A program made the translations under genes and the position numbers. Below, in pieces: positions 40,271-62,188 of a stretch of 64,000 nucleotides of DNA. Position 1 is the first letter of the stretch. Every line of letters starts with the position of its first letter. Under the pieces are notes generated by a model, which was not told where the DNA came from, did no database searches, and worked only from the letters and a program-made list of their open reading frames with translations. The stretch is from Schmidtea polychroa (lineage: Eukaryota), in the NCBI GenBank assembly GCA_044892525.1, contig CM097885.1, positions 14,014,001-14,078,000 on the forward strand, given 5' to 3'.

Positions 40271-40860
40271 CTTTTAATAAAAATTATATTTTTATTTTAC
40301 ATATTACAATCATGTTTCAAATTGAGATTTCCTTTTACATTTACATTTTGTTTTATACTGTTTGATATATTGCATTTTATTCCAATTTTTACTATTAAAT
40401 TAATTATTGTAATAAAAAGTTAAGGATCGTCCCAAGTGGCACATAATTCTGTTGAGGTTTTAAAAGTAAATTATTAAATTATATTGTTCAGATTAAAAGG
40501 AAAAACCGAAATTGAATGGCGGTCAATCAGAGAAGCAATGGCAAAGAAAGATAAAAACAGAACTATAAAAGCGTACAATCCGACATGAAATGGGAAAATG
40601 CGCAAACCTGAGGAAGTGGAATAAATTGAAAAATTATCGAAATTGAAGCTGGAAAACGGGAGAGGGGTAGATTAGGGGATGGTGAAGAAGACAGTGAGCA
40701 AGAAATTGTTAGAAAATGTTTAGAAAGGGTCGTTAAACAGGCAAATAAAAAACAAAATATTAATTAATTAATTAATTGGCTAATGGGAAACCCGAGCTAA
40801 TAGGAAGCCCGAGCCAATGGAAACCCCGAGCGTGGCAATTTGGAAGGATAAACAAATGGG

Positions 40861-41194
40861 AGTAGTGAGGAATCTATGCACCCCAGCACCCCCACCCTCA
40901 AAAAAAAACAGCGCTATTGACCCATATTTTCCACATTTATATGCTTTTTTACCCCATATTCTTCACTTTTTTTAACTTTTAAACTTTGTCCCCTATTGCC
41001 ATTAACCCTTAATTTCTTCCCTTAAAAGTAAAAAAGTTCGGAATAGATGTATTTATAGATTAGTAATTCCGAGAAAAGGTAACGGGGTGCATAGATTCCT
41101 CACTACTTGGTCTTAAGGATTTAATGTTATAAGGATTTAATGTTATAAGAATATCAGATTACCTAATTCATAATGATCTAGGTCGCCTGATCAC
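40861..41194 (+). repeat. Polinton left TIR
   Basis: Reverse complement of 55379-55710 (2 substitutions and a 2-bp homopolymer indel by eye). Confidence 0.95.
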
Positions 41195-41267
41195 TTTTAG
41201 ATTTAAAAAAAATAAAAATTAATATCAAAACCAAAACATCGTATCCAACCAAAAAATTCTTTTAAAA

Positions 41268-41820: not shown

Positions 41821-44800
41821 ATGCCTCTAGATGTAAAAATTGAAACCTCATATAAATATTTATTTTCTACAAAAGCAGGAAATAAACTTGTTAATGATAT
41901 AGCTAAAGAATTGGAAGAAAAACAAGAACAGGTGGAACAAGAACTAGGAGAATCTAATTTAAGATTCCACTCTTTTCAAAATATAGAGATTGAATACTGG
42001 AGAGGCGCACCACCAAATCCTAAATCTTTTATTCACACACCATTCCCCTCCAACCATGTTATAAATGTACAGAATAAAGATAATAAATGTTTTCAATGGT
42101 CAATACTTGCACACTTACATCCTCAAGCAACTAACCCACAGAGAGTTCAAAAATATGAAGAATATGAATCTGAATTAATTTATCCAAAAGATTTTTCCCA
42201 CCCAATGAAAATTGAAGATGTTCCAGCATTTGAAAAATTAAATAATCTTAAAATTAATATTTATCAATTCATTCCAACCAAAATTACAAAAACTAGAAAA
42301 AATAAAAATTATAAACACATTATTCCTATTTACATTTCTAACATGGAAATCTCAGATGAAAAGAGAGAAGTAGATCTTTTAATATTAGAAGAAGGTAAAC
42401 CAGATGAAGACTTTGATGGAGAAGAATATGGTGAAGAGGTTCAAAGCGTTCACCCGAGGAGAGAAGCAGAAGAAGGCATTTCATTAGAACCAGAAGCAGA
42501 AAGCACTGCGTCTGGAGGCACTATGTTAGATAAAAAACTTCATTATATCTTAATAAAGAATTTTCAAAGTTTTATGAAAGGAAACACACTCATTCGTGGA
42601 GGCATATGTTGTAAAAGATGTTTATATCATTCAAGTTCAAAACTTGCTGCTATTAAACATGAGAGACTCTGTTGTAAGAATCAACCTGCTTTAATAAAAA
42701 TGCCACACAAGAAAAATGCTAATATGAGGTTTAAAAACTATTCCAATCTATTAGAAGCATTGGGAGTGGTTTATTGTGATTTTGAAGCTATAAATGTAAA
42801 ACTAAGACGAACAAAAACTAATACTGTAAAACTAACAAAACAATTACTCTCTGCTTATAAAATGTTTTTTAAAAGTAATTATCCAGAACTTGTAGAATCT
42901 AGAGAATATTCATTTAGAGGAACTTCTGACAAAGAGACTCTAGATCATTTTGTTAAAACTTTAAATAATCTAGAACATGAATTATATATAATATTAAAAT
43001 CCAACTTTCCTATGAATTTTTCAGAAGAACAAGAGGAAGAATATAAAAATGCAACACACTGCTGGATGTGTAAACAAGAGTTTGATATTCAGGAGGAGGA
43101 GGATGAGGAGCCAAAGGTTGCAGACCATGATCATTTTAAAAGAGAAAATAATTACAGAGGAGCAGCCCATAAAAAATGTAATCTCAATTGTAAAAAACCA
43201 ACACACATACCATTTATATTTCACAATCTTTTTGGCTATGATATTCACCTATTCATTAAGCATCTGGCCGCAAATGCTAAAAACTCTTTCAAGGTTATTG
43301 GACTTACAAAAGAAAAATATAAAAGCATTCAATATGGATGCTTTAAGTTTTTGGACTCGTTAAATTTCTTAGGGATGTCTTTGGATGGGATTGCTAAAAC
43401 TATGAACCCTGAGGATTTTAAATATACAAAAGAACATGTGTTATTAAAAAACAATATTCCATTAGAGGAATATAATACCTGTCTAGCAAAAGGAATCTAT
43501 CCATATGATTATATAGACTCCTTTGAAAAATATAATGAATTACTCCCACCCCAAGAAGATTTCTTTTCTGTTTTAACACAATCAGGGATTTCTGATCAGG
43601 AATATTCCCGTGCAGTTAAAATGTGGAATCTATTCAACTGTAGAAACCTTGGAGAATATACTGACATGTATCTTTCCTTGGATGTTTATATCTTAGCTGA
43701 TTGCTTCGAGACATTTTCAAAAGCTTTTGAATTAAAACCTTATAATTATATAACCGCTCCCTCTCTAGCTTGGGATATATTATTATATACCATATGGACT
43801 GATGAAGATGTAGCAGTAAGAAATAAAACTATTGAATTATTAGTTGAGCTTGATATGTTTAATGTATATAAACATAATATTAGAGGAGATATTTCTTCAG
43901 TACAAGGGAATAGAGAAATAAATGCTAATAATTTTACAACTCTTTATCCTAAATTTTTCAAAGATCCTGATGCTCTATATGTAGAAATAACAAACCCAGA
44001 AGATAGTAAGGAAATAATGGAAGGTCTTTCTAATCCTTCTGAAATAATGTATATAGATGCAACAGCTTTATATGCGGGAGTAATGACTCAATACCTTCCA
44101 ATTGGCAAGTTCACCTGGAAAGAACCCACTGAGGAATTAATACAAGAAATTCTAAAAACACCAAAAGATTCTCAATTTGGATATGTTGTAGAATGTGATC
44201 TTGAATATCCCAATGAAATAAAATCCAGAACTAGATATTTTCCATTTGCTCCTGTAAGAAGAAAGATCTCTCCTGAAGAACTATCAGATTGGCAGATTGC
44301 TCAGAATAGAACACCATGTATAAAACTTTTATGTGATCAAACAGATAAAACTGATTATCTTTGTCATTATAGACTCCTCCAGTTTTATCTCTCACATGGA
44401 ATGGTTTTAAAAAAAGTACATTCTATAATTAAATTCCGACAAGCTCCTTTTATGAAAAAAATTCATCGAGGGAAATATCTTAAAAAGAAATGCAGCAAAG
44501 AGAGCTGGAAATGCTTTTCTTGATATGATTTATAAACTTTTAAACAATGCAGTCTTTGGAAAGACAATGGAGAATATTGATAAATATACTCGTGTAGAGC
44601 TCTTAACCAATACAACAAAAGATATTAATAAATATAATCGAATAATTGGAAAGCCTACATTTAAAAATGCAGAGATATTCTCTAGTAACCTTATAGCTAT
44701 AGAGATTAAAAACTCTGTAAAAACTTATAATAAACCAATCTTTATAGGTTTTTCAATTTTAGAACTTTCAAAGCTTCAAATGTATGAGACCTACTATGAT

Positions 44801-45661
44801 GTTCTAGTACCCCATTTTGGAGATCGAATATCCATGCATGCTATGGACACTGATAGTATGTTTTTAAAAGGTCATAGTAAAGATTTAAAAAAGGAAATAA
44901 GTGAAAACGAAACCTTAAATAAATTAATAAACAACTCTGGAGAATTATTTACTTTTAAAGATGAAAAACCAAATACTCCAATAAGTGGAGGAGTGTTTAT
45001 TAGACCTAAACAATATTCTCTTGAAATGAAAGACAAACCAATTATGAAAGAGCATACAATAAAATTTATAATAGGGGAGGGAGAAGGATCTGTTGAAATA
45101 GATCACACATTTGAATATCCTTCATTCCCTGAAAACCCGAAAAGCTATAAAGAAAATAAAAGTAAAGGAATTCAAAAATCAGTGTCAAAAACCTTCACAC
45201 ATCAAGAGTATAAAGATTCATTAAATATAAATTATAAAAATAAAATTGCTAAAACGCATCATCTTAAATCAGAGAAACATAATATATATCTTGAAGAGTG
45301 TAACAAGATTGCTATAACAAATTATGATGATAAAAGATTTATACTTTCTGACTTGAAGACAACATTACCTATTGGAAATGATTTAATCCCTATAATAAAA
45401 AATCTTGATAAAATAAATGAAATTTATAACCTAGAGATTACAGACCTTCAACTTGCTAAAGTAGAAATCCAATATCCTGAAATATTAATTCCTAAACCTT
45501 TATATAATCAAGTTCAAAATATAAAACCTATAGAACTTAAATATTTTAATACTGATCCTGAATATATCCAAGGACTAACACCAGAAGACTTTAAATCACA
45601 TAAATTAATGTTAAAAAGCATTACTGCAGAAATAATTATAAATCAATTACGACTGGTCTAA
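41821..45661 (+). CDS. polB: Protein-primed family B DNA polymerase, split by one extra A in the A7 run at 44455-44461
   Basis: NKDNKCFQW, Exo YCDFE / HNLFGYD / FLDS, KGIYPYDY, YIDATALY, KLLNNAVFGKT, DTDS, KQY, DDKR. Removing one A gives ...MKKFIEGNILKR...MIYKLLNN. Confidence 0.93.
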
Positions 45662-45685: not shown

Positions 45686-46240
45686 ATGATGGAAACTAAA
45701 AATCAAGAAAATAACATTTTTGAAATTATAAAAAATATTACTAATTTAAAGGATAACAGATGTAAAGGAATACAGAGAGTGGTTGCAAAGAATCTTTCTC
45801 ATCAAGATTATATAGATACATTGAATCCAAATCATAAAGATAAAATTGATGAAATACATCAACTTAAAAGTGAAAACCATGATATTCACTTGATAGAATC
45901 TCAAAAAATATCATTATCAAATTATGATGATAAGAGATTCATACTAAGTGATTTAAAGACAACTCTACCTATTGGAAATAATTTAATCCCTATAATAAAA
46001 AATCTAGAAAAGTTGAATAAGTTATATGATACAAAGATTACTGATCTTGATATTTATAATGTTGAAATTATTTATCCCGAGAGAGAAATCGAGAAACCTT
46101 TATATTCTCAAGTTTTTAATCCTATATGTTTAGAACTTAAATATTTTAATACTGATCCTGAATATATAAAAGGTCTAAGTGATAAAGAATTTAAAGATCA
46201 TAAATTAATGATTCATAGGTTGGCTTTCAACCATAACTGA
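45686..46240 (+). CDS. Stand-alone paralogue of the pPolB C-terminal ~160 aa
   Basis: Shares KGIQ, HxLKSE, NYDDKRFILSDLKTTLPIGNxLIPIIKNL and ELKYFNTDPEYI with the upstream polymerase end. Confidence 0.85.
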   Translation: MMETKNQENNIFEIIKNITNLKDNRCKGIQRVVAKNLSHQDYIDTLNPNHKDKIDEIHQLKSENHDIHLIESQKISLSNYDDKRFILSDLKTTLPIGNNLIPIIKNLEKLNKLYDTKITDLDIYNVEIIYPEREIEKPLYSQVFNPICLELKYFNTDPEYIKGLSDKEFKDHKLMIHRLAFNHN

Positions 46241-46334
46241 AACCAACGATATTTAATTTTTTAATAATAAAATGTCGACAATTAATTTAAGCAACTATAG
46301 CAACCTGATCTACTTTTTTAAAAATACACCCATT

Positions 46335-46931
46335 TTATAAGTAAGAATTCTTTAACCATTTTTCTCGAGATGTTTTTTTATTACTTATAACATTAGCCAC
46401 CATACCCTCCCTTTTTAATCTTATAACCTCATTCTTTATATCTTGTATTATTTGATTTGATTTCATTATTTCTTCGTCTGTCAGGATTCCATCTTCCAAA
46501 GCTTTTAATTGAAATAAAAATAATTTAGAGATTCCTAATTCTATTGATAAACAAACTTCTCTATATAAACTTTTCTTTTTAGAAGTATAAGATAATGAAA
46601 CTATTTCAGTTAAGAAACCATCAGCCACAGAAATACTTCCAAGTATTACAGGTGCAAGAGTAACAACTGGTAAAGTTATGGGTAAAATAACTGTTAATAT
46701 TGCAGATGCAAATCCTAAAGAATAACCTATAACTTTTAAAACTGTATTCCCTTTATTCCATCTATTTTTAATTTTTTTATAATGCTTTAATAAATCTTGT
46801 AAATGTAAGGTTTCTGATTTAAATTCTTTTACTCTCATAATTTCAAGTTCTGTGGGAGCCGAGGCCTTGGAAGAATAATATCCTGATGATCTCAATTCTG
46901 GGTAAATTTTTTCTTCTCTTACTTCTTCCAT
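46335..46931 (-). CDS. Polinton membrane protein (PW/GasderminX-like)
   Basis: N-terminal IYPEL...ASAP, central double hydrophobic segment, ALEDGILTDEE motif; the family assignment is from recall. Confidence 0.65.
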   Translation of the reverse strand: MEEVREEKIYPELRSSGYYSSKASAPTELEIMRVKEFKSETLHLQDLLKHYKKIKNRWNKGNTVLKVIGYSLGFASAILTVILPITLPVVTLAPVILGSISVADGFLTEIVSLSYTSKKKSLYREVCLSIELGISKLFLFQLKALEDGILTDEEIMKSNQIIQDIKNEVIRLKREGMVANVISNKKTSREKWLKNSYL

Positions 46932-46939
46932 TTTAATAA

Positions 46940-47587
46940 TTAAAAAAATAAGACTTTATTCTTCTGAGCACCATCTGGTACCAATACTCGGATATCAAAA
47001 GAAACTCTTGTTGAAAGGATGTCTTTATACAATTCTCTCAATGCTTTACGAACTTCATCAACATCAACCTTTTTTTCATAAAATATTAAATCTATATATT
47101 GTACAAGTGAACTAGAAAAATGAATATTCTTACTTTTAACTTTATGTAGTCCATGTGAATGAGTATTAACATACCAATCTTCGTGTGGTAAATCATAACT
47201 AGTCATTATAACATCACCCTTTTCAAGCTTACTATTATAATCACATTTCACAAACCATTTCATTCTTTCATTATCATCATCAAACAAAAAGAAATAAGGA
47301 TCAATAATTTTTACAACCATAAAAACACCCCATTCTTTACTGTTTGTTGTTATTAAACTTGGTTCTATAAAATGTTTATATGTATGGGGTAATAATGTTT
47401 TATTCTGTTCTAATTCAGCAGCTCTTTTTCTAATACTATGTGTGGTGTTAATGTGTGTTCCATGAGACTCTAAATTTGAAATTCTTTTATTAAATGATGT
47501 AATCATCTCATTTATTATATTATATATTGCATTAAATTTTATGGAATATAAGAACTCATTTATTAATAATTTAAAATGAATCTTCAA
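46940..47587 (-). CDS. Hypothetical protein (heptad coil, RKR site); candidate fibre/spike
   Basis: Intact 215-aa ORF overlapping the penton stop (ATGA). Confidence 0.6.
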   Translation of the reverse strand: MKIHFKLLINEFLYSIKFNAIYNIINEMITSFNKRISNLESHGTHINTTHSIRKRAAELEQNKTLLPHTYKHFIEPSLITTNSKEWGVFMVVKIIDPYFFLFDDDNERMKWFVKCDYNSKLEKGDVIMTSYDLPHEDWYVNTHSHGLHKVKSKNIHFSSSLVQYIDLIFYEKKVDVDEVRKALRELYKDILSTRVSFDIRVLVPDGAQKNKVLFF

Positions 47588-48348
47588 ACCTGTTTCAAAT
47601 GTAAATACATTGAAATCTCTTCTCCATTAAAATCAATCAATTCTCCTTCTTGATTAAGAATTTTAAAATTAATATCCATTATATATTTTCTACATAAAGG
47701 TAAATAATTTGGAGGATTCATTCTTTCAACTATTTTATATCCCATAGGAACTGTGTTTGAGGGAAAGGAATATAAAACATTTGTTTGTTTACCATTATTA
47801 TAAGAACCTGTTATACAATCGCAATGAATATTTATTGTGTTTGTATTTATTATTTTTATAATATGTTCTGATGTTATTATTTTATCTTCTTTTATTGTTA
47901 TATCCATAGGTTTAAATCCTAAAACTGTGTGAAAGAAACAATTATCTAAAAAACTAATTTTTATATTCTTCAAAGTCATTACACATTTTGAAGTTGGTAT
48001 ATCCATTTTAATTTTAATACCTTCATTTGTTTTTTTAGAAAGTATATCATTTAAATCTTTTATCTCATATGCCCCAGGTTCTATTGTTATAATTTCTGGT
48101 TTATGCCCATCACGAGTTTGAATAGTAAATTTATTATTATCTTTAGTTATATTAAAAATAGTATTATAAGCACAAAACCATAATAGCCCCAATTCATAAT
48201 TTAAATTTTGATCTAATTTAATTGAATCTTGAAAGTTTATAGTAAACTCTGATTCTTTTGAATTTATAGATAAAGTTCTTGAATATTTATCTGACATTAT
48301 GTTTACCATTTTTTTTAAATTATCTTCCGGAGGGTTGTGAAGCTTCAT
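47584..48348 (-). CDS. Minor capsid protein (penton, single jelly roll)
   Basis: YELGL, IEPGAYEI, INIHCDCI.GSY.NG, YLPL...I.FKILNQEGELIDFNGE...LHLK. Confidence 0.85.
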   Translation of the reverse strand: MKLHNPPEDNLKKMVNIMSDKYSRTLSINSKESEFTINFQDSIKLDQNLNYELGLLWFCAYNTIFNITKDNNKFTIQTRDGHKPEIITIEPGAYEIKDLNDILSKKTNEGIKIKMDIPTSKCVMTLKNIKISFLDNCFFHTVLGFKPMDITIKEDKIITSEHIIKIINTNTINIHCDCITGSYNNGKQTNVLYSFPSNTVPMGYKIVERMNPPNYLPLCRKYIMDINFKILNQEGELIDFNGEEISMYLHLKQV

Positions 48349-48396
48349 TTCTTTAGTAGTAAATTCATATAGTAAAAATCCTTATAGTAAAAATCC

Positions 48397-48861
48397 TTAT
48401 AGTAGAGATTCTAGATCATTATAAATTTCTTGAATTATAGATTCAAAATCCTGCGTATGCCCCTTTCCCTCTCCCTTATTCAATCTATACAAAACATATA
48501 AACTTAAAATACCACATATTTTAGTATTCAAAGGTTGAACTTGTAAAGAGTTAAAAGTATAACCATTTGGGGAATCAATCGGAGAACCCCTCAAGAGATA
48601 ATCTTCAACTTCTTTAGTAGGTTTAATCCCAAAAGAATCAAAGTAGATAGATTTCTTATATATACAAACCCAATGAGATCCTTTTTCATTTGAATTTTGA
48701 TAATTGATTATTATATTCAGGGGACTCTCCAGACTTGATAATTCATCATTCATTAATATTTTAATTTTTAAATTTAAATAATTTGCATAATCTTTTAAAT
48801 CAAAATTTGTTTTTGCATTTATTCCAAATGTTTTTAAAAAATCTAATATTGAAGGAGTCAT
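48397..48861 (-). CDS. Adenain-like cysteine protease
   Basis: GSHWV, YFDSFG, Q....ICG catalytic His-Asp-Gln-Cys pattern. Confidence 0.92.
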   Translation of the reverse strand: MTPSILDFLKTFGINAKTNFDLKDYANYLNLKIKILMNDELSSLESPLNIIINYQNSNEKGSHWVCIYKKSIYFDSFGIKPTKEVEDYLLRGSPIDSPNGYTFNSLQVQPLNTKICGILSLYVLYRLNKGEGKGHTQDFESIIQEIYNDLESLL

Positions 48862-48883
48862 TTTGTATTTTAAAACTTCGTAT

Positions 48884-49777
48884 TTATAACTTCGTATACT
48901 TATTAAATTTATCTTTTGAAATTATTCCTTGTTTTAACAAATCTTTAGAAATCTTTAAAATATCAGAATCTAAATTATTATGTCCTGCTTTCCTTGCAGC
49001 TAATAGTTTTCTTAATTCAATAAAAAGATTGATGGGATTTGGTTTACCACCTTCACTAATTAATCCCTCTCCCTCTGTAACAACATAACCCTTTTCATTT
49101 TTATTTAAATAATTCTTTAAATCTTGAATATATTTTGCTTTAGAACTAGCTCTTATTAATCTTATTAAATTTAAATATTTTTTAATTTCTTCAACATCAT
49201 CTGAAGAATATCCACAAAGTAATCTATAAAAATCATCTGTAAATTCAAAGTCTAAATATTCATTATTATAAACATTTTGTGAATGAATACGTGATTTATT
49301 TTCTGAATTTGAATATAAAGTAAAGTTTTGTTTATTAATTGTTATTATTTGATATCCTTCAGTATTAGTATTAAATGTGGGTCTAATTGAAGGAGGTAAA
49401 TCATCTCTAATTTTAGGATCAACTTTAAGAGCTTTTGTTTTTAAAAACATTTCTTCTTCTTCCACATTAGAAATTCTTCTGCGTTTTCTTTGATTTCTTT
49501 CAGAATGACTTTCAGAATGGTTTTCACTGGATTCTTTTTCTTTATCCTGCCACTCTAGTTCTTTTATTTTTTGTTTTTTATCTTCTAACTCTTTAAATTT
49601 TGCTTGCTCATTGAAATCTTCCAACTCTTTTATAGCTTTAATTGTTGGCCCCTGTTGTTGTGTTATTACCTCATTTAATATTATAGATTCAGCATGTTGA
49701 GTTGTATCTTTTTTATTATATTTATCTTGTTCTGATTGTAATTTTTTTAAAAGTGCTAATCTTTCTTCATATACCAT
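48884..49777 (-). CDS. Polinton protein of unknown function
   Basis: Intact 297-aa ORF with a basic NLS-like RKRRR, GEGL and a C-terminal LLAARKAGHN...LLKQGII helical motif. Confidence 0.7.
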   Translation of the reverse strand: MVYEERLALLKKLQSEQDKYNKKDTTQHAESIILNEVITQQQGPTIKAIKELEDFNEQAKFKELEDKKQKIKELEWQDKEKESSENHSESHSERNQRKRRRISNVEEEEMFLKTKALKVDPKIRDDLPPSIRPTFNTNTEGYQIITINKQNFTLYSNSENKSRIHSQNVYNNEYLDFEFTDDFYRLLCGYSSDDVEEIKKYLNLIRLIRASSKAKYIQDLKNYLNKNEKGYVVTEGEGLISEGGKPNPINLFIELRKLLAARKAGHNNLDSDILKISKDLLKQGIISKDKFNKYTKL

Positions 49778-49799
49778 TTTAATGGTATCAAAAATGGTA

Positions 49800-50378
49800 T
49801 CATAGTTCGAAGGGCTTCAAGTATAATCCTTTACCATTTTTAGTTTTACAAAGGCATCCATTCTTTAAAGATTTACATATTTTTTTTAAATCTTCTTTAT
49901 CTTTTGAAGATAAAGATTCAGATGTAGAAATTTGATTTTTTAAAAAATCATTTAAACCTCTACCTTTATAAGGATCAAGATAGAGACCTTTGCCCTGAGA
50001 CTTTTGCCGACTCCCCTCATATGGATTAAGATAGAGACCCTTTCCAACGGACACTCCCCCTTTAGCTTGCCCTACCTTCTTCATTGAATCGATTTCAGTT
50101 TGTAGTTTTTCTTTTTCTAGGTCTGTCTTTTGAGATTCTTTAGCTTTTTGAACTGTAGTTGCAATTCCTCCAGCTATTCCAGCAGCACCTGATAAACCAG
50201 CAATGATTGCAGGTATTAAAGCAGCTAATGGAAGAATGCCACCTTCTTTAGCTTCGTGGAGCTTCGCTCTAACTTGTTCTTTTACATGTTTTCCAATAAA
50301 ATATTTTTTACCATCAATTACTACTGATTTATTTTTATTTGAATTTATTAATTCTTGCAAAGATTCTTCAGTTGTCAT
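49800..50378 (-). CDS. Core/membrane-active virion protein (adenovirus pX/mu-like)
   Basis: EGGILPLAALIPAIIAGL resembles adenovirus pX GGILPLLIP; three GKGLYLxP repeats; likely start is MTTEE with AAAATG context. Confidence 0.7.
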   Translation of the reverse strand: MTTEESLQELINSNKNKSVVIDGKKYFIGKHVKEQVRAKLHEAKEGGILPLAALIPAIIAGLSGAAGIAGGIATTVQKAKESQKTDLEKEKLQTEIDSMKKVGQAKGGVSVGKGLYLNPYEGSRQKSQGKGLYLDPYKGRGLNDFLKNQISTSESLSSKDKEDLKKICKSLKNGCLCKTKNGKGLYLKPFEL

Positions 50379-50394
50379 TTTATAATAAATAAAA

Positions 50395-51186
50395 ATGGAT
50401 ACTTGGAAACCAATTTTAAATAGACATAAGAGTAAATTCAATAATAAATTATTTCCTGATAATTTTAGATTATTAATTGTTGGTTCTTCTGGATGTGGAA
50501 AGAATGTACTTGTTTTGAGAATGTTACTTGAAGATGATTTTTTAGATTATAATAATTTAATCTTTTATTCTACAACCATAAATCAACCAGAATTACAAAT
50601 TTTGAAATGTGGATTTGAAAATAAATTAACTAAAAAAGCAATAATTGATATTTTTAAAAATCAACATAGGTGTCCTGAAGAAGTTTTTCAACCTTGTGAT
50701 ATGGTTGATTGGTATAAGGAAAAGATTTTAGAATCAGATATTAGTAATAAAAATGATTATATTTGTGAAGAAGGGCAGGAGGCAATTCAAGTTTTATTCT
50801 CTAATAAACCTGAAGATGTTTTACATTGTGATTTACTTCCTAAAGATAAAAAGAATCTAGTTATATTTGATGATGTTGTTAATATGAAAAATCAAGAGAT
50901 TCAAAAGAGTTACTTTACACGAGGTCGACATAATAATTGTAATGTTATTTATATATCTCAAACATATTATGCTTTAGATAAAAATTCAATAAGAAATAAT
51001 TCCAATTGTTTTATATTTTTTAAATTAGATCGCCGTGATAAGAATATGATTTATAATGATTTATTTTCAAATGTTGAACCTGATAAGAATATGTTTGATA
51101 TGTTTGTTGATAATCATTGGAAAGAGAAATATAATTATATTTATTTGGATAGAGAAGAAGCTGAAATATGGAAAAGTTTGTTTTAG
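50395..51186 (+). CDS. A32/FtsK-like DNA packaging ATPase
   Basis: Walker A GSSGCGKN, Walker B LVIFDD, RGRHNN...ISQ, IRNN. Confidence 0.92.
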   Translation: MDTWKPILNRHKSKFNNKLFPDNFRLLIVGSSGCGKNVLVLRMLLEDDFLDYNNLIFYSTTINQPELQILKCGFENKLTKKAIIDIFKNQHRCPEEVFQPCDMVDWYKEKILESDISNKNDYICEEGQEAIQVLFSNKPEDVLHCDLLPKDKKNLVIFDDVVNMKNQEIQKSYFTRGRHNNCNVIYISQTYYALDKNSIRNNSNCFIFFKLDRRDKNMIYNDLFSNVEPDKNMFDMFVDNHWKEKYNYIYLDREEAEIWKSLF

Positions 51187-51197
51187 GGCTTGTCGAC

Positions 51198-52583
51198 TTA
51201 AAAATCTGTTTTCTGTAGTTCATTATTATAAAATCTACCTAATATTTTTTCATTATTTAAATCAAAGATGCTATATGTTATTGGAGTTGTATAATTTATT
51301 TTATTTATAATAAAAATTTCATTTGTCCATTTTGCTGTGAATCCTTTTTCAAATTTATTTTTATATTTAAATATTCTTACTCGGTCACCAATTTTAAACT
51401 TTGGTTTTTCAATAACATCATTTTCAATATTTACCACTTTAATGGTTTCAGGCTTCATGGAAGCATTTAAAGGTGTTAATTTTATAGAACTATGTACATC
51501 ATTATTATATTCATTTACAATCTTTTGTAACAATTCATTGTTCCATTTTTGTTTTCCAATAGCAGTAAAATATTTCCACATTTTATTTTTTAATGTTCTA
51601 TTTAATCTTTCAACTACGACTGCTTTTCCTTCGTTTTCTGTTGAATATAATTTAATATCATTTTCATTTAAAAACTTTGTAAAAACTTTGTTATAAAATT
51701 CTGTTCCTTTATCACACCATAAATATTTTGGGATTCTTTGATTTTCTTCAAATATATTTTCAAATGCTTCTGTAATAGAATATCCTGTTTTATTTTCTAA
51801 ACACCTTGCAAAAGCAAATCTTGTATATAAATCTATTACAGTTAAAATTATTTTATATTTTTCAGGGTCTGATGATTTGGGCATAAAGACTAAATCTGCA
51901 GACCATGTTTGATCTTTTTCATGTACTTGAACTTTTAAATATTTTTTATTTTTTCTAAATTCATGGTGTAATTCCTTTGCATATTTTATTTCTGATTCTG
52001 TTGGGGTTTGTAAACTAGTCTTGGATATATTCTCAAGGGATCTTTCAATGTCTGCTTGTTCGATAATCTTTTTATAAGCAACATCTTTTGCTATTCTAGG
52101 AAGTCTTGCACCCATGGTGATCGGACTGTGTCCTAAGCCTATGAAAATCTTACCTTTCATTGCTAATTTAACTAGAGCTCTTTGAATCTTTTCTTGGGTT
52201 GATGGATTTTGGATACTAATTAAATCATGTATTAAATTCACATCTGCAACATGTCTATCTCTAAGATTTGTTGAATTGTATGCAATGTCATGTTTTAAAG
52301 CTGCTTGATCAATTCTATTTATTGGTTCTTCTCCTTGTTTGGGATTATTATTTTCATCTAATCTAATATCTAATCTTGTTCCTGGTCCGGTGTAGTTGTG
52401 TTTAAATAAATGTCTTTCACCTGGATATTTTTCTGTAGTAAAAGGTTTTAATATTGAAGATGTTGTTTTTGAAGATTGTAGATCGCCTCCTGTATGTTTT
52501 TTAGTTTTTAAATGACTTGCTTTATGATGTCTTGTAACTTGACAATTACAAGTTTCACATCTCCAATATTTATTTAGAGACAT
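51198..52583 (-). CDS. Zinc finger - parvovirus-type PLA2 domain - retroviral-like (rve) integrase fusion
   Basis: CETC...H....H; YTGPG...DQAALKHDIAY...AD; DDE core WSADL / WCDKGTEF / VERLNRTLK; C-terminal FKIGDRVRI...W. Confidence 0.92.
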   Translation of the reverse strand: MSLNKYWRCETCNCQVTRHHKASHLKTKKHTGGDLQSSKTTSSILKPFTTEKYPGERHLFKHNYTGPGTRLDIRLDENNNPKQGEEPINRIDQAALKHDIAYNSTNLRDRHVADVNLIHDLISIQNPSTQEKIQRALVKLAMKGKIFIGLGHSPITMGARLPRIAKDVAYKKIIEQADIERSLENISKTSLQTPTESEIKYAKELHHEFRKNKKYLKVQVHEKDQTWSADLVFMPKSSDPEKYKIILTVIDLYTRFAFARCLENKTGYSITEAFENIFEENQRIPKYLWCDKGTEFYNKVFTKFLNENDIKLYSTENEGKAVVVERLNRTLKNKMWKYFTAIGKQKWNNELLQKIVNEYNNDVHSSIKLTPLNASMKPETIKVVNIENDVIEKPKFKIGDRVRIFKYKNKFEKGFTAKWTNEIFIINKINYTTPITYSIFDLNNEKILGRFYNNELQKTDF

Positions 52584-52612
52584 TTTAAAATGTTAAAATA
52601 TCAGGGATTATA

Positions 52613-53905
52613 TTAAGAATCTCCCCTAAAATTTTCGATTATTGAAATCTTTCCACCATATAATTTCATTTCTATTTTCTTTTCTTCTAATATTAATGTA
52701 TATACTTTAGCTTTAAAATTAGAATCCTTTGTTACATGAAGTGTAACATCAACATTATTTATGGCTAATCGATCATCTTGGTCTGATACATTTATACAAA
52801 ATATAGAATATAAATTTTTGAAATCTTCTAAACTTAATTGCGGTTCAACTTTGAAATCATAACATGTTTCAATATAATTTAGATATGGGAATATGTTTTC
52901 ATTATTTTCAATATTAAATTCCATTCTATTTATTGGATAATAAGAACTATTTAATTGAATTTGTATTGTTTTTAAATTATCATCTCCAATCTTTTGAATA
53001 AATAGATTGTTATTTTTTTGGAAAGATGAATCTGTTTCTTTGAATCCAATCAAGATATATCTTGGTCGGTATGCTAAATTTGCTACCTTTATAGAATATG
53101 TTGAACCCTCTGTCATACTAAATTCACTACAGATTCTATTTAAATAATTTACATTTATAGACTTGTTGGAATTTAATCTTTCAAGGAGTTTAATCTCAGA
53201 ATGTGGGTTTAATGTCCATTCAGGTATATGTAATTCAAGTGTTGATAATTTTAATTTAGCTTTTGTATCTACAGCTCCATAGAACAATCTTTTATCACCT
53301 TCTACTCTATTACAGATGAATTCTATAAAAACATTATGAAGTATACGATTATAGTTTTGAAGGAATCCAAACAAGTGTTTTAATTCAAAATAACCTTCAA
53401 AATTTTTAGATTTATAAAGTTCAGCTCTTTTATGGTAACCATGGTTTACATCTAAACCATCTTTATCTAAATCCCCTTTATTAACATCAGGAATCCAACC
53501 TGTTAATTCACCATATTCGTTTTTATAATCACAACCAGTCAAAATAAAATTTAACATTGTAGAATATACTCCCGGATGCAAAACAGTTTCAATTTCTGAT
53601 GATCCTAGTTTTAATCTCATGTTGGAGAATAAATTTGGAAAGAAATTATTTTCTAGGGTTATATCTTTGTTTGCTTCAATTTCTAATTCGATTTTATAAT
53701 ATAATTTGGCATTACAAATATCTATTGGGTTTGATGTTTGAAGAGATTGAAAAACTATATCACCCCTACGATTTAAGTTTGCAATAGATCCTGAAGTTGG
53801 AGAGATTTTTAAAATATCATTTTTTTTAATTTCATGAGTAAATTCTTTATTATAATCAAGATTTAATTTATTTTTTTCTTGAATTTTAAGATTTATATTA
53901 TTCAT
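52613..53905 (-). CDS. Major capsid protein (double jelly roll)
   Basis: 430 aa; NNFFPNLFS, LKHLFGF, PRYILIGF, LNSSYYP, IFCINVS motifs and gene context. Confidence 0.85.
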   Translation of the reverse strand: MNNINLKIQEKNKLNLDYNKEFTHEIKKNDILKISPTSGSIANLNRRGDIVFQSLQTSNPIDICNAKLYYKIELEIEANKDITLENNFFPNLFSNMRLKLGSSEIETVLHPGVYSTMLNFILTGCDYKNEYGELTGWIPDVNKGDLDKDGLDVNHGYHKRAELYKSKNFEGYFELKHLFGFLQNYNRILHNVFIEFICNRVEGDKRLFYGAVDTKAKLKLSTLELHIPEWTLNPHSEIKLLERLNSNKSINVNYLNRICSEFSMTEGSTYSIKVANLAYRPRYILIGFKETDSSFQKNNNLFIQKIGDDNLKTIQIQLNSSYYPINRMEFNIENNENIFPYLNYIETCYDFKVEPQLSLEDFKNLYSIFCINVSDQDDRLAINNVDVTLHVTKDSNFKAKVYTLILEEKKIEMKLYGGKISIIENFRGDS

Positions 53906-53961
53906 TTTTATATATTAAAATTTACACACACAAAATAGGATTAATTAAATATATTATGTAA

Positions 53962-54043
53962 GCCATTATAGCGGAGTGGGAATAGGCTTCAATTTTATCA
54001 CCGGGAGTACCGGGTTCAATTTTCGATTTTGGTCAATTTTTTT
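53962..54043 (+). ncRNA. tRNA-like Pol III unit 1
   Basis: A-box TAGCGGAGTGG (53969), partial B-box GGTTCAATT (54013), T7 terminator. Confidence 0.5.
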
Positions 54044-54205
54044 CGATATTTTTTTTTCAACGGAATCTGATTTAGCGTACTGATTTTAGTATATATTTAA
54101 ATTTTCAGATGGATCTGAGTGGTAGTTGTCGAGAAAATGAATAATTAATTATTAATTTCATCAATAAATAGTCACACATTAACAACTTATTTTGTATTGA
54201 GTATA

Positions 54206-54286
54206 GCTCTAATAGCTTAGTGGTAATAGCACTCGACTGCATTGCCAATACCAATGGGTTCAAATCCCATTTCGGTCATTTTTTTT
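54206..54286 (+). ncRNA. tRNA-like Pol III unit 2
   Basis: A-box TAGCTTAGTGG (54213), B-box GGTTCAAATCC (54257) in a perfect T-arm ATGGG-TTCAAAT-CCCAT, T8 terminator. Confidence 0.65.
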
Positions 54287-54443
54287 CAAATTTTTTTTTA
54301 ACGAAATATTGATCAGCATACTCGATTTAGTACTTGTACAAATTTTTAAGGAGATTGGTCAACGGCAACTCTTGGAAATTTAAGATCAAAAACGTTTTAA
54401 CTACCAAAAATTAATATATCCAATAAAAAAAATATTTATAAAA

Positions 54444-54740
54444 ATGGATGAGTTAAAAGAAAGAATGAGAAATGAATTGAATGAAGTTAAACATAAGAGA
54501 ATGAAAAGAAGAGAAGAAGAACCATTAGAATACATCAAAGAGTTGATGGTAGATAATGAAAAGTCTCGACATTTTTATATGAAGGCTGTAGATGTTGCTG
54601 ATATAAGATTGAAGAAAATGAAACAATTACAGGAAAGAGTTAAAGAACTTGAATCGATTATTTATAGTCTAAAAAATGACAAAAATTCAAACCTTGATGG
54701 CGCAGTGGGAATAGACTGGCACAGTGGTTCAAATGGATAG
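54444..54740 (+). CDS. Small coiled-coil protein
   Basis: 98-aa charged helical ORF with TATAAAAATG context. Confidence 0.6.
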   Translation: MDELKERMRNELNEVKHKRMKRREEEPLEYIKELMVDNEKSRHFYMKAVDVADIRLKKMKQLQERVKELESIIYSLKNDKNSNLDGAVGIDWHSGSNG

Positions 54741-54773
54741 TGGTTCAAATCACATCTGAGGTTAGTTTTTTTT
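54691..54773 (+). ncRNA. tRNA-like Pol III unit 3
   Basis: A-box TGGCGCAGTGG (54698), B-box GGTTCAAATC (54742), terminal stem AACCTTG/TGAGGTT, T8 terminator. Confidence 0.55.
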
Positions 54774-55378
54774 CAACATAAAATAATATTAAAAATTTGA
54801 AAATAATATTGAAAATAGTGTGGGTATCTTATATTTATAAAGTACTTGTATATTTTATTTTATTTTATTTTATTTATTTTATTTATTTTATTTATTTTAT
54901 TTATTTTATTTATTATTTTATTTTTTAAACATAAATATGAAAAAAAAAATATTGAAACGGGTGATGGCCCCGAACCGGTAATTATCGCCACCTTTCTTTC
55001 GAACACCCCCGGATCGATTCCGGTAATGTGCACATTTTTTTCTCAGTTGTTTTCGGACCTCTTTCGGATTCGCTTTCGAATTCATTTGTACTTTCGAGCA
55101 GCACACTTAAAACGCCGATGAAATCGTATTCGAGCGAGAAGCGAATAATAAGGTGTGCTGCTATTATCGAATTGATTCTGATGTATGAGTCTGGCCAGCT
55201 TGTATATTGGAAGAGATTTGATAAACGAAAGAGGTTGAATAAAAAAAAATGATCCGGATCAAAAAAAAACTGTTGAGAGGACAGTGAAAAAAAAAAAAAA
55301 AAAAAAAACCACTGTCCTCTCAGAGCAGTTTTACTATTTCATAAAATTTTTTATTTTTAAAACTTTCAAAACCTTAAG

Positions 55379-55710
55379 GTGATCAGGCGACCTAGATCAT
55401 TATGAATTAGGTAATCTGATATTCTTATAACATTAAATCCTTATAACATTAAATCCTTAAGACCAAGTAGTGAGGAATCTATGCACCCCGTTACCTTTTC
55501 TCGGAATTACTAATCTATAAATACAACTATTCCGAACTTTTTTACTTTTAAGGGAAGAAATTAAGGGTTAATGGCAATAGGGGACAAAGTTTAAAAGTTA
55601 AAAAAAGTGAAGAATATGGGGTTAAAAAGCATATAAATGTGGAAAATATGGGTCAATAGCGCTGTTTTTTTGAGGGTGGGGGTGCTGGGGTGCATAGATT
55701 CCTCACTACT
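55379..55710 (-). repeat. Polinton right TIR
   Basis: Inverted copy of 40861-41194. Confidence 0.95.
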
Positions 55711-56821
55711 AATGGGGAATTCAGAAAACAATTATCAAAACAGCCGGATAAACGAGGGTAAAAAAAGAAGGGGAATTAGGAAGAGGGTCAACAGAAATAG
55801 ATAATTAGGGAATGATAACTAAGGAAGTCAAAACCAATTAGGTCAAAAATAGGGCAATTACAACGATTATGGGAGTATATAAGGAAACTCCATATTCACA
55901 TAATCGGCGATAGCCTTAGGTAAGAAAGAAGAAAACGACATTAGGAGTTAGAAGAATAGAATAAAAGAAGAAAAAGAATTATAGGAAAACTGAAGAGTTA
56001 GACAAGGAGTGTCAAAAGAGATTGGATCAGACAACGGAACTAAATCAAAAGGTGAAACTTAATTTTTTAATCGTACAAGGTTGAGACCTTCCAGAGAGGA
56101 GTCCGATCTGAAATTGTGTGAGATTGCGGTTAACCAACAGTGTAAATAATTTTTGAGAGTTGTAAATTTTTATAAAACAAATATACGTTGGGAGTTTGTG
56201 TTTATTGATTTTGGAACACGTGGAGTCAGAGTAACCAACGGTTCATTTTGATATCATAAAACCCAACAATTCAATTCTACTGATAAATTAATCAGTAGAT
56301 AATTCTTTTCACATTTTGATTTCGATATATAAATGAATTTTATCACTGAATATTTTATATTTATATTTAATTTTCAAAATTTTATGACAGGATAAAAGAA
56401 TTGATTACCTCAAGAATATGATGATGAGATGGAGGGTGGCCCTTGCTAGTAAAATCAAATATAATTCAACTTCATGATAATCGCAGTTGAGATTATCAAA
56501 ATTGTCCCCTAATCAGTAGGATTGATAATATTTATGATTATAATTTTATATGTTATGAGAGAAATTATATTAATGAATGCAAATATGTAAAATTATGTAA
56601 GAAAGAAAATTTTCAAAAATCGCTGGAAAGTTGGAATCGAAACACTTCGGTGTCAACAACCTACAGGTTTGAAGCCTGCACCCCGGACCGCCGAGGCTCA
56701 TCCCAGCAATTATACATTTCTAATTTTCTTATAAATAGATTATATACACTTTACATTTTATTTATAATTATTATTGCAGCAAATTATTTATCGTAAATTA
56801 ATTAAATTCCAGTACAAAGTT

Positions 56822-57499: not shown

Positions 57500-60400
57500 T
57501 GTTGAAGTTGGTAAGGAAACCAAAAAGAATGTATATATAAAAGAAAGGCATAACAAATATTAGTAAAATCAATAAAAGTGCAAATTATTTAAAACTTACT
57601 AAAAATCAAAAATAAATATTGAATGGGAGTATCGTATATTTTTGAACGCCAAATTGATAGACGAGTTCAGAAATTATAATGAAAATTTAATGAGGGATTC
57701 ACAGAGAAAGTTAATGTGAAAAAACAAATTAATTAAAATTAATTAATCTGTAATGGGAAGCCCGAGCCAATGGGAAGCCCGAGCCAATGGGAAGCCCGAG
57801 CCAATGGGAAGCCCGAGCCATTTGGAATCCAGAGCTCGTGGGAAACCCGGAGCGCAGTGAAATCCGATCGATAAGATATGAGAGCGAACATTCCGAATGC
57901 CAATTTAGAACAAATAAATTAAAATAATTTGGAAACCTTCAAATTTTTACTTAGGATTCATGGGAGATAATTAATTGCAATTCTGTAGATAATTGCCCTC
58001 TCAGAAACAATATAAAAAGATAGCTCAGAAACAGACAAGCTGCCAGTTGGTCGAAGAAACAAATTGAAGCTCAGTGAATCAGGCGATCAGAGATCAGAGA
58101 ACGAAATATCGTAATTGGAAAAAAAAGTTTAATCCTCGAACTAGAAAAGAGGATTGCCCCTCTGGTTATCTACCCTAACGAGTAATATTTATATTGAGCG
58201 AAAGGTGCAAATATAGTAACAAATTGTAATTTGATTGAAATTGAATAAATTTATTCTGTGCTGGGTTTCGATTTTTTTATTTAAATAAGAACACGAAAAG
58301 TCAGAGGGAACCTACATGAAAAATAAAATCCAACATTTTGGTGAGGGTGACGTGATGCAAGTCGGCTGTGAATATTGCGGGAAAAAATAAAAAGAGAAAA
58401 GTAAAATCGATTGAGAGTTGAATATTATTGACGTGAAGAAGGTCGGAGAGGGAAAACTAAAATTAATTGAAAGTTGAAAATTATTGTCGAGGTACAAAGT
58501 TGGAGATAAAGTTGTTAAAAAGAAATTAAATTGAAAAAGTAGAAAAGAAATAAATTGTTGTGGTTCAAATAAAAGAGAAGTAAAAAAATAAAAATTTAAA
58601 TAGTACTAATTGAATAAAAATATTTTTGTCAAATATTTGGAATATTGAAATAAGGGAAAGTGAAAATAAATTGTTGTAGTTAAAAGATAAGAAAGTGAAT
58701 AAATTGTGCATTTGAAATAAAAGCGTAAATTTACTGAGATTTAGAAGCTATTGAAATAAAGTTGTGAGAAATTACGAGAGAATTTATAAAGACAATTATT
58801 GAAGATCAATTCAAAATTCAAACAAAAGGTAAAGTTAAAAATTGTAAAGTTTTAAAATTATACAATCTGAGAAGTAAAAACAATTGGAAAGTATGGTGTC
58901 GAGTAACTCAAATGTCAAAGAGCAAAATTCAGTGTCTACTACTCCAGCGAACAATGGAAACGACTATGCCAGTTGTTAAAAATTACCCATCGATCAGTAC
59001 GGAGGAGATCCAGTCGAATATTTTGATTTCATGATAGATTATTACATGTATGTTACAGCCTATGGATGTAGCCAAGCAACTATGGTTCAACGGCTATCAT
59101 TAGATCTAAAAAGAGCAGCACAAGAGGTCTGGAAACAGATTGATAAACGACCCATAGCAAATGATTGGACAAGATTAAAATATGCGCTTGCAGCCAAGTT
59201 GATCGGAGAAGATATAAAGAGAATGATGCGTCAGAAGGTTTACAGTCCAGTGCAAAAGCCAGATGAATCGATAAGTAAGTTTGCATGTCATTTAACTACT
59301 CTTGCAGAGAAAGCATTTGAACTGAAACCAGATCACGAAGAAGTGGCAAAGCAAGTTAAAGAATTATTGCAGGATCAATTTTTGACAGGAGTCAAAAAAG
59401 AAATAAAAAGGGCTTTATGTTTTGATAACTTTACAAGTTTTTATGACTTAATTAAAAAGGCCATGAGAATCGAAATGAACCTCAAAACGACTCAGTCAAA
59501 AGCAGAATCCTTTGCGACTATCAGTGAGCCAAGAGATAGATCAATAGCCCTAGTCAGTGATAACTTACTCTAAAGGCCAACCAGCCCATTTCCCAAGTTC
59601 AGAGTGAAATTTGAACCAAGAAAGCCAACAGCCCGTCCAAATGAGGAAAGACAAAGACCACTTCGATGTAGTCATTGCTAGAAAATGGTCTATAATGTAA
59701 ATCAATACTGGTTTAAAATAATATTCGAATGAGCCCTAGCCAAGTTCAGTGTGATTATTGTCGAAGAAAAGGATATAACAATAATCAATGTTGGTTCAAA
59801 AATAACGAGCAGCGTAGTCCAAAAGGAATGTTTCCAGAATGGGTGAAATGTAATGGAGAGAAAAGTGTTAACAGAACGAATATCCGTAACCAAAGAACCA
59901 ATGATAATATACAATGCAATAATTGTGGAAGGAAAGGTCATGTCTCTCGAAATTGTTTTGCAAGATTCAGATCTCAGTCAACATCACTATCACCACAGAG
60001 AGATAGACTAATTTACAAGGCCAAATTCATTGTAACTTCAATGTAGTCATTGGCAAAAATTGTCCATTAGGTAGTGTGTCGGTTCTAGGAATTTTCTGTG
60101 TGTAGGCGAGTTGCAAATTTGCCGCCGCAAAAATAAAAAATGTTGTAATTTTTAAATTGAAAAAAATAGAAAAACACTGAATATCTGAACTTAATACATA
60201 TATTTGTATTTTAATACGAAAAATTAAACAAAATCCAGTTTATAAAAAATAACAAATAACAAAACAAATAATAATTAAAAGTGAATTTTTCTCGCTTTTA
60301 ATTCTCCAAAATCCTTAACCAAATCTTCTATGTCTAATTGATCAGCAATTTCTTTTTCTATGGAAATCGTGGCTAGACCAACTAAACGATCTTTACACAA

Positions 60401-60890: not shown

Positions 60891-62188
60891 TTAAAATAAT
60901 TTGCAGCAATAATAATTATAAATAAAATGTAAATATATATAATATATTTAAAAGAGAATTAGAAATTTATAATTGCTGGGATGAGCCTCGGCGGTCCGGG
61001 GTGCAGGCTTCAAACCTGTAGTCGGTTGACACCGAAGTGGTTCGATTCCACCTTTCCAGCGATTTTTGAAAATTTTCTCTTTTACTCAATTTTACATATT
61101 TGCATTCCATTAATATAATTTCTCTCATAATATAAAATTATAATCATAAATATTATCAATCCTACTGATTAGGGGATAATTTTGATAATCTACACTCCAA
61201 TTATCATGAAGTTGAATTACTATTGCTTTTACTTGCAAGGGCCACCCTTTATCTCATCATCATATTCTTTAGGTAATCAACTCTTTTATTTCTGTCATAA
61301 AATTTTGAAAATTAAATATAAATATAAATTATTCAGTGATAAAATTCATTTATATATCGAAATCAAAATGTGAAAATAATTAACTACTGATTAATTTATT
61401 AGTAGAATTGAATTATTCAATAAAATTAAGTTTTTACTTTATTAATTAATAATGAATTATGTCATTTTATCACAATATTATAAAAAGTTATAAATAAAAT
61501 AATAAATTAGTTTGTATAGTTTTCTGATTCCGCATAACAATACTGTGCATAAAATTCTAATGCAAATTAATTATACAAAAATGCAGTGGCGTAGCTAGAA
61601 TATGTGCCACCTGGGGCGATCCTTAACTTTGCCTCCTGTCCCCATATAATTATCTAACACAAGTCTGATCTAACTAAGAATGTGTAATAAATATATTTTT
61701 ATCCTTTATGTAAAATATTTATTTTCTCATTTAAACATTATGTTGTAATAAAATATGTTATAAAATAATGCATGGTCAATTTATTGAGTATAGGACAATA
61801 TCCCCTCGGACAATATCCTCCTAGACAAATACCCCCCACTCTTGTTAATAATGCATATAATTTAGTATGAATATAATAATAAAGACATTGCAGTTTATTA
61901 ACTAGTAATTATAAATTAATTAATTGCCCGGGGATATTGTCCGAGGGTATATTATCCAGGATGATATTGTTATGGGGATATTGTCCTTATACCCAATTTA
62001 TTACAATAATTATGCTTGATGAATAAAATTGTGATAATATTAATTGACAAATTCGCATCGTTCTGAATTTTATTTAAATAATCTTTACAAATATAATTCT
62101 AAAATACAAAATCAAAATAAAAAAACAGAAAAATAATTTTATTGAAAATATGTCTCGCAATCTCCCTTCAGAAAACCTTTCCAACAAT

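Follow-up and report, generated by a model that had tools for sequence, protein, structure and literature searches.

Three short units with the promoter layout of tRNA-type RNA polymerase III (Pol III) genes lie within a 14.85-kb Maverick/Polinton of Schmidtea polychroa, with the capsid gene of the element on one side and its right terminal inverted repeat (TIR) on the other. They were found in a 64,000-nucleotide stretch of contig CM097885.1 (assembly GCA_044892525.1, positions 14,014,001 to 14,078,000 of the forward strand), which is referred to below as the window and in which positions are counted unless a contig is named. Judged from their sequence, the units are derived from a tRNA yet are not tRNAs. 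We lean, with somewhat less than even confidence, towards the view that they are box-preserving Pol III/TFIIIC modules that stem from one captured tRNA gene and reside in the accessory arm of a Maverick sub-lineage.

An A box, a B box and an oligo-T run are what TFIIIC and Pol III require on tRNA-type genes, and all three are present in each unit. The A boxes agree with TRGCNNAGTGG about 8 nt after a purine start in 3/3 units, this consensus being taken from a first-pass annotation of the window and from general knowledge; the purine stands at -7 from the A box (G at 53962, G at 54206 and A at 54691 for units 1, 2 and 3). Directly downstream follow GAATAG, TAATAG and GAATAG, respectively. The B box of a type-2 Pol III promoter (GGTTCGANNCC) is expected 30–60 nt beyond the A box, and GGTTCAA is found exactly 44 nt past the A-box start in every unit. 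At the specified positions of the full 11-mer, unit 2 matches 9/9, unit 3 8/9 and unit 1 7/9. GGTTCAA is doubled in unit 3 through a 16-nt internal duplication (AGTGGTTCAAATNNNN), so the 44-nt spacing of this unit hinges on the choice of the second copy. The oligo-T terminators are T7, T8 and T8 in a window that is AT-rich (G+C 22–34%). The combined pattern TRGCNNAGTGG-N33-GGTTCRA has three matches on the two strands of the 64-kb window and a mean of 0.00 in 100 dinucleotide-preserving shuffles, 0/100 of which contained a match. The boxes, 44-nt spacings, purines, (G/T)AATAG motifs and T runs listed in the first-pass annotation were all recovered where it had placed them, and the type-2 Pol III geometry with oligo-T that it had proposed is borne out for 3/3 units. 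Its placing of the units in a Polinton, between the major capsid protein (MCP) gene and the right TIR, is confirmed by the TIRs, the target-site duplication (TSD) and the Pfam-assigned genes described below.

The units are related to tRNA to different degrees. Unit 2 is the best kept, with a perfect T arm and a broken anticodon stem: it scores 32.4 bits against the Rfam tRNA family RF00005 (curated cut-off 29), and in the Rfam alignment 5/7 standard pairs are present in the acceptor stem and 0/5 in the anticodon stem. At E values up to 10, Rfam gives nothing for units 1 and 3, no family except tRNA for any unit and no virus-associated (VA) RNA family. ARAGORN calls a tRNA in 0/3 units. In units 1 and 3 the two strands of the D stem are not complementary, and the D-stem 5′ strands GCGG, GCTT and GCGC no longer pair with the (G/T)AATAG that is common to all units. 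Because all share the D-stem 3′ strand TAG beside non-pairing 5′ strands, the units probably descend from one tRNA gene and not from three. In 3/3 units the oligo-T begins 1–3 nt past the acceptor 3′ strand. The 78–80-nt units gave fold z-scores against shuffles of 0.07 (unit 1), -2.80 (unit 2) and 0.15 (unit 3), and the better-than-shuffle fold of unit 2 comes from the perfect T arm and an alternative hairpin. A search for a host tRNA donor in the 781-Mb assembly (four largest contigs 93–272 Mb), using the unit-2 D arm, four different bases and GGTTC, found 0 forward and 0 reverse matches with a pattern that is strict and gives no proof of absence. The first-pass annotation had stated that the units have no proper anticodon arm and are not ordinary tRNAs, and both statements agree with the broken stems and the ARAGORN result.

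The units behave as members of a larger repeat. Units 1 and 2 are alike over ∼170 nt including their flanks, from which the repeat appears to be a ∼244-bp module rather than a 75-nt unit. The module is made up of ∼45 nt upstream, the tRNA-like head, the oligo-T and ∼115 nt downstream; outside the T run the flanks of modules 1 and 2 are ∼68–73% identical, by our count on the alignment, and a near-palindrome, AGTACTTGTA, is conserved in the module flanks. We regard the three units as paralogues, probably degenerate offspring of a single tRNA gene. In a fixed register their pairwise agreement is 8–9/11 in the A box, 5–6/6 in (G/T)AATAG, 8–10/11 in the B box and 6–11/27 in the middle. Each unit reads differently at the two N positions of the A box. 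Sixteen of the 18 box positions specified by the consensus are invariant among units 1–3, as compared with 11/44 other positions (Fisher p 4e-6), in a test that is biased in its own favour because it was by their boxes that the units and an extra array copy were picked out. With this bias, the result agrees with the first-pass claim that the boxes have been kept and the sequence between them has diverged.

Genomic copies were also compared. In the 30 best copies, a sample that leans to conservation because it was drawn from the best matches, the boxes of units 1 and 2 and both GGTTCAA copies of unit 3 are intact in 30/30 and the unit-3 A box in 29/30; the T7 of unit 1 reads TTTTTAT in 12/30. 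The first-pass annotation had looked to such copies for box conservation and for covariation, of which the former was seen and the latter was not.

The host element has the hallmarks of a Polinton/Maverick. It is bounded by TIRs of ∼360 nt with the 6-bp TSD AATGGG on both sides (Table 1); the TIR arms are 95% complementary over 332 nt (40891-41222 / 55351-55682) and 100% complementary over the outer 46 nt (40861-40906 / 55665-55710). It encodes a double jelly-roll MCP, an A32-type packaging ATPase and an rve integrase, all assigned with Pfam, and unit 1 begins 57 nt from the MCP start codon. The region 41821-45661 probably encodes a protein-primed family-B DNA polymerase: 27/30 of its nearest named Atlas clusters are DNA polymerase (score 0.97; PF03175 on 34–40% of members), which taken alone is a lead, and it has no match in Pfam, PHROGs or PDB sequence searches. 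KLLNNAVFG, at residue 4 of the second polymerase open reading frame (ORF), resembles what we take to be the polymerase motif-B consensus. The change of frame at 44523/44525 could be a frameshift in the present copy or an intron.

Table 1. Position of the three units and of the features of the element that carries them.
Feature	Position	Strand	Details
Unit 1	53962-54043	+	A box TAGCGGAGTGG at 53969; GGTTCAA at 54013; T7 at 54037-54043
Unit 2	54206-54286	+	A box TAGCTTAGTGG at 54213; B box GGTTCAAATCC at 54257; T8 at 54279-54286
Unit 3	54691-54773	+	A box TGGCGCAGTGG at 54698; GGTTCAA at 54726 and 54742; T8 at 54766-54773
Two-module block, units 1 and 2	53917..54407	+	∼489 bp; all-or-none piece; AAAATT at both edges
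Small coiled-coil ORF	54444..54740	+	98 aa; non-conserved C-terminus extends into unit 3
Left TIR	40861..41222		TSD AATGGG at 40855-40860
Right TIR	55351..55710		TSD AATGGG at 55711-55716
Probable protein-primed DNA polymerase	41821..45661	+	Two ORFs in different frames, 41821-44523 and 44525-45661
A32-like packaging ATPase	50395..51186	+	PF04665, E 2.7e-09
rve integrase with N-terminal PLA2-like domain	51198..52583	-	PF00665, E 8e-12; PF08398, E 7.7e-09
Double jelly-roll MCP gene	52613..53905	-	PF21738, E 1.4e-26
Piece of ∼1.25-kb tandem array (L071)	G000:C1:145400-148000

Several further features of the element were recorded. The PLA2-like domain PF08398 is placed ahead of the rve core in the integrase on the minus strand, a fusion that to our knowledge is unusual among Maverick integrases. 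TAAAATG or TAAAAATG stands at the start codon of 7/11 ATG-start ORFs of the element (45686 to 54444), and this context looks like a common promoter or initiator motif abutting the ATG. A direct repeat of 300 nt with 73% identity (45149-45448 / 45749-46048), 600 nt apart, runs from the end of the polymerase to the next ORF. Outside the element, a 17-nt repeat (AATGGGAAGCCCGAGCC) forms arrays at 40765-40849 and 57735-57870, flanking the Maverick on both sides; as the TSD AATGGG equals the first six bases of the repeat, the insertion site of the Maverick may have been within this satellite or next to it.

The modules are optional cargo of the right arm. Of 2527 candidate capsid loci, 126 were scored with a hidden Markov model (HMM), and the thirty that scored highest were examined; their MCP protein identity to the window is 86–97.7%. 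Six loci have the arrangement of the window (unit 1, unit 2, ORF, unit 3), two have the ORF and unit 3, four have unit 3 alone and three have two unit-3 modules. In another three, unit 3 is followed by e1 (window 54951-55150) and e2 (window 55151-55350) and then by the unit-1+2 block with other flanks. Eleven loci have no unit within ∼1.25 kb beyond the capsid start, and one is masked and cannot be judged. Unit 3, with 18 loci, is therefore the most widespread; units 1 and 2 occur in nine. At MCP identities of 91% or less, 9/12 loci lack modules and one is masked, the exceptions being L039 (type E) and L047 (ORF and unit 3). The first-pass claim that the units are preserved among siblings does not stand against absence from 11/30 loci (one masked) and units 1 and 2 in only nine; their absence from sibling copies, which that annotation had named as evidence against its proposal, is in part what was found. 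Judged from these comparisons, the modules are accessory cargo that is unneeded for transposition. A search by MCP for relatives elsewhere confirmed 0 of one pattern stretch in viral_contigs and 0 of 98 in metagenome_contigs.

Units 1 and 2 are gained or lost together. Empty sites of their block are seen in L047, L038, L058 and L059, and the block stands in another place with the same right end (54402) in L037, L039 and L054; its edges fit insertion and microhomology recombination alike. The block is near-identical in backgrounds that diverge by several percent to 13% in MCP and unit 3, as exemplified by L035, in which the MCP protein is 95.3% identical to that of the window, unit 1 100%, unit 2 97.6%, the 98-aa ORF 98.8% and unit 3 86.6%. 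This near-identity across diverged backgrounds suggests a recent spread of the block by recombination. In the type-E loci L037 and L039, the sequence just left of the block, AACCACTTCGGATGGTCA, is similar to the way the units end on the 3′ acceptor side (…TTCGGTCA) and could be what is left of another unit; it also forms a loose end in one contig of run X1.

The history that we favour would run as follows. In a sub-lineage of a young, high-copy Maverick, a tRNA gene would first have entered the right arm, a variable region from the capsid start to the right TIR, and local tandem duplication would have multiplied it there into ∼244-bp modules. The anticodon, D and acceptor stems would then have decayed, and the A and B boxes at 44 nt and the oligo-T would have been retained. 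TFIIIC is predicted to bind the boxes, and Pol III to make ∼75–80-nt, mostly unstructured RNAs from units 2 and 3; for unit 1, early termination at the T4 runs within it is probable. What serves the integrated element would be the RNA or else the TFIIIC/Pol III complex bound to the DNA. Since the units lack structure, we think it likelier that they form a chromatin boundary next to the divergent promoter of the capsid gene than that they supply a double-stranded RNA (dsRNA) decoy.

Several observations weigh against this reading, and most of them would follow if the units were neutral relics, that is, if a tRNA gene or short cluster had been picked up once, duplicated by slippage and left to decay, with boxes that seem kept through recognition bias and the youth of the family. 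The stems are broken, and no compensatory change that keeps any stem was found in the copy comparisons; where the acceptor and T stems of unit 3 vary, a change on one strand is not balanced by one on the other. The folds of units 1 and 3 are no better than chance would give. The bias of recognising units by their boxes has been described above. When 33 unique unit-3 variants were compared, changes were concentrated in the strands of the acceptor and T stems, and the flanks on either side were as invariant as the boxes and the T run, so the conservation of unit 3 is not box-specific. Unit 2 and its relative in a tandem array are identical at 47/62 positions within the unit and 82.7% identical over the 283-bp module. 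The number of modules ranges from 0 to at least 3 among subfamilies, and the eleven capsid loci without any indicate that they are dispensable. In a box scan of L037, an older type-E copy, no A box was detected at unit 2 and the spacing in unit 1 was 47 nt, and 44 nt is in any case the usual gap between positions 8 and 52 of a tRNA. Internal T4 runs in unit 1, which the first-pass annotation had reported and which were located at 53993-96, 54020-23 and 54027-30, likewise count against a working Pol III gene, as does a possible poly(A) end beyond unit 3 discussed below.

Against such neutral decay, the duplication is old by the divergence of the flanks and middles, yet 16/18 box positions have stayed invariant. 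The N positions of the A box changed in each unit with their neighbours unchanged, all three T runs were retained, and the unit-1+2 block is near-identical in elements whose MCP and unit 3 differ by 5–13%. Neutral relics are accordingly a substantial possibility, though a minority one in our estimate.

In an improbable alternative, the T runs and AT-rich flanks would be Pol II 3′-end or promoter signals of the small ORF and of the MCP gene, unit 3 would be the 3′ untranslated region (UTR) of the ORF, and the likeness to tRNA would be incidental. The 98-aa ORF enters unit 3, and its last 21 nt accompany unit 3 even in variants without the ORF. An ORF of 65–89 aa with the same start is found in 5/5 variants checked (L047, L038, L058, L042 and L035), with differing stops, and the start context TATAAAAATG is common to the 98-aa ORF and the MCP gene. 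Contigs of runs X1 and X2 span 54407-54839, and one X2 contig carries 18 untemplated A's after 54783, 10 nt beyond the T8 of unit 3. Position 54783 may be a poly(A) site and, should X2 be RNA, transcription passes through unit 3 and yields a polyadenylated product. No run recorded as RNA contains 53900-54900; the four runs compared, X1 to X4, are contigs, of which X1 and X2 are guessed to be RNA, and contigs cannot reliably show RNA ends or rank cover, for which reason the low contig cover over units 1 and 2 is no evidence either. The near-palindrome conserved in the module flanks would also fit Pol II signals. What this alternative leaves unexplained is the full A/B-box consensus in three paralogues. 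Moreover, no ORF precedes units 1 and 2, and in the type C and D variants unit 3 is 42 nt from the MCP start with no plus-strand gene upstream.

A tRNA-derived host short interspersed element (SINE) or another small mobile element, inserted into the Maverick as the ∼489-bp block, is a still weaker candidate, and we consider it very unlikely. The block does have discrete ends with the 6-bp direct repeat AAAATT, and it stands in two contexts, at the MCP start and after e2 (L037, L039 and L054); the direct repeat is equally accounted for by microhomology-mediated deletion or recombination. By eye, neither TIRs nor an A-tail is present at the block ends, where no repeat search was made, and an oligo-T right after the head would halt Pol III ahead of any SINE body. 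Copy counts point the same way. The 851-bp region gave 1986 first-look candidates in the genome, of which 40 were scored and are 98–100% identical. With up to two mismatches the 5′ half of unit 2 has 2583 matches and the 5′ 31-mer of unit 1 has 2108, and the exact pattern TRGCNNAGTGGKAATAG-N27-GGTTCAA has 4239 (reversed control, 0). Only 3/2583 unit-2 copies have another 4-nt 5′ flank, and the unit-1+2 block adjoins the MCP N-terminus, within a Maverick, in 10/10 of the matches sampled, these being the best-scoring ones; a 40-mer spanning the junction of MCP start and block has 1429 copies as compared with 2108 of unit 1. The own dispersal and varied flanks of a tRNA-derived SINE are thus not seen, and the high-copy host SINE that the first-pass annotation had named as fatal to its proposal did not materialise.

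Away from complete elements a single location turned up, a tandem array (G000:C1:145883-167106; repeat period ∼1.25 kb) that has at least 17 exact pattern matches and holds a related single module, which a mobile-element origin could explain. Its repeat consists of a unit-2 module (82.7% identical to window 54122-54402), the right flank of a Maverick variant and ∼700 bp of 17–20-bp repeats such as GAGTAAATGGCTACCTC. That right flank is shared with the type-E Maverick variant, so the array too is derived from a Maverick. Neither the array nor one old rearranged copy has an Rfam match at E values up to 1.

That the units are working tRNA genes supplementing translation of the element's own genes, a role proposed for tRNA genes of Polinton-like viruses and phages, for which one could cite the score of unit 2 above the Rfam cut-off and the tRNA genes reported for Polinton-like viruses and virophages (PMC12220804), is effectively refuted by the broken stems: ARAGORN makes no call, unit 2 has no standard anticodon-stem pair and two acceptor mismatches, and units 1 and 3 have no tRNA match at E values up to 10.

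A bolder extension of the captured-module reading, which we think doubtful, holds that the units are live and are both used and spread by the Maverick. They would supply decoy or guide RNAs with free 27-nt cores, directed at the small-RNA or innate sensing of the host, or, likelier, TFIIIC boundaries that keep the capsid side open; the block would have moved among subfamilies by recombination as an aid to amplification, and the host would have been seeded with more than 4,000 Pol III promoter sites.

Three selenocysteine-tRNA genes are found within 26 kb, at 35026-35111 (-), 56622-56707 (-) and 60975-61060 (+), with RF01852 scores of 72.7, 56.4 and 79.2 bits, and two of the three are called by ARAGORN. 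The selenocysteine-tRNA gene is usually single-copy. About 60 nt of flank is conserved on each side of these genes, including an upstream TATA-rich stretch, and two of the copies bracket the Maverick. Positions 1-1999 of the window are a 90% copy of a separate element that holds a 7SL-like piece; in L073 (G000:C1:133300-135800) this piece is a partial RF00017 match of 30.4 bits, under the 70-bit cut-off. Among the matches listed, none joins the 7SL-bearing element to the Maverick arm.

If the boxes are active, this would be an animal virus-like DNA transposon with its own Pol III units. Such units have been described in herpes-, adeno- and retroviruses, and plain tRNA genes in protist Polinton-like viruses. 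For Mavericks, Polintons and adintoviruses, a literature search found no description of such units, in agreement with the first-pass annotation, which knew of none in Polintons; in the excerpt seen of a review of giant transposons, planarians appear for long terminal repeat (LTR) elements only. With more than 2,000 copies each of units 1 and 2 and the 4,239 sites of the family pattern, a large load of TFIIIC sites on the host is possible, which, if active, may affect chromatin boundaries and the supply of Pol III factors. Live units would represent a DNA-transposon route to a role like that of SINEs in mammals and a possible parallel to the adenovirus VA genes. Inactive ones would be an ordinary captured and decaying tRNA gene on a successful transposon, which would still mark subfamily history and recombination.

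Among virus-like relatives, Polinton-like viruses and virophages have already been published as carriers of tRNA genes, with 558 tRNA matches reported in a scan of 8300 genomes and a role in codon supply proposed (PMC12220804). Maps of mid-size dsDNA viruses likewise show tRNA flags, according to a figure legend (PMC8502044, Fig. 6). The present units resemble such genes as tRNA-type accessory cargo that is patchy among related elements. They differ from those tRNAs, which are called by ARAGORN or Rfam, in having a broken fold and no ARAGORN call, with boxes and terminators remaining, and also in their setting, an integrated Maverick in thousands of copies in an animal host. Bovine leukemia virus (BLV) has a microRNA (miRNA) cluster driven by type-2 Pol III promoters (PMC12498455). 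The likeness lies in tandem short type-2 units within an integrated virus, and the difference in the products, which are pre-miRNA hairpins in BLV, whereas no hairpin products are predicted here.

The units also invite comparison with dispersed host sites. tRNA-derived SINEs, extra TFIIIC (ETC) sites and tRNA-gene boundaries are dispersed A/B-box sites that are possible TFIIIC insulators. Like SINEs and ETC sites, the units amount to thousands of tRNA-derived A/B-box sites spread by a mobile element, with a possible TFIIIC insulator role. Unlike SINEs, they are spread by a DNA-level virus-like transposon and not by retrotransposition of their own Pol III transcript; their terminator follows right after the head, and they have no occurrence independent of the carrier.

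Adenoviruses belong to a lineage held to be related to Polintons, and their VA RNAs are ∼160 nt long. The units share with VA RNAs the internal A/B-box layout of the Pol III promoter. VA RNAs are abundant dsRNA mimics (PMC6599070). The units, by contrast, are 75–80 nt long, lack a long stable dsRNA-like fold (z 0.07, -2.80 and 0.15, two of the three folding no better than shuffles) and match only tRNA, and no VA family, in Rfam, so that the analogy to VA RNAs drawn in the first-pass annotation finds no support. The tRNA-miRNA-encoded RNAs (TMERs) of murid gammaherpesvirus 68 (MHV-68) are clustered, non-chargeable tRNA-like units with A and B boxes near one genome end, among small ORFs; pre-miRNA hairpins follow their tRNA-like head, ahead of the terminator. 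The Maverick units have a similar layout, with several tRNA-like A/B-box units near the element end, interspersed with a small ORF. Unlike TMERs, whose hairpins precede the terminator, they have their oligo-T within 1–3 nt of the head, which leaves no room for hairpins of this type. Although the defining features of neither family are present, the closest functional analogue would seem to be the MHV-68 TMERs by layout and the VA RNAs by lineage.

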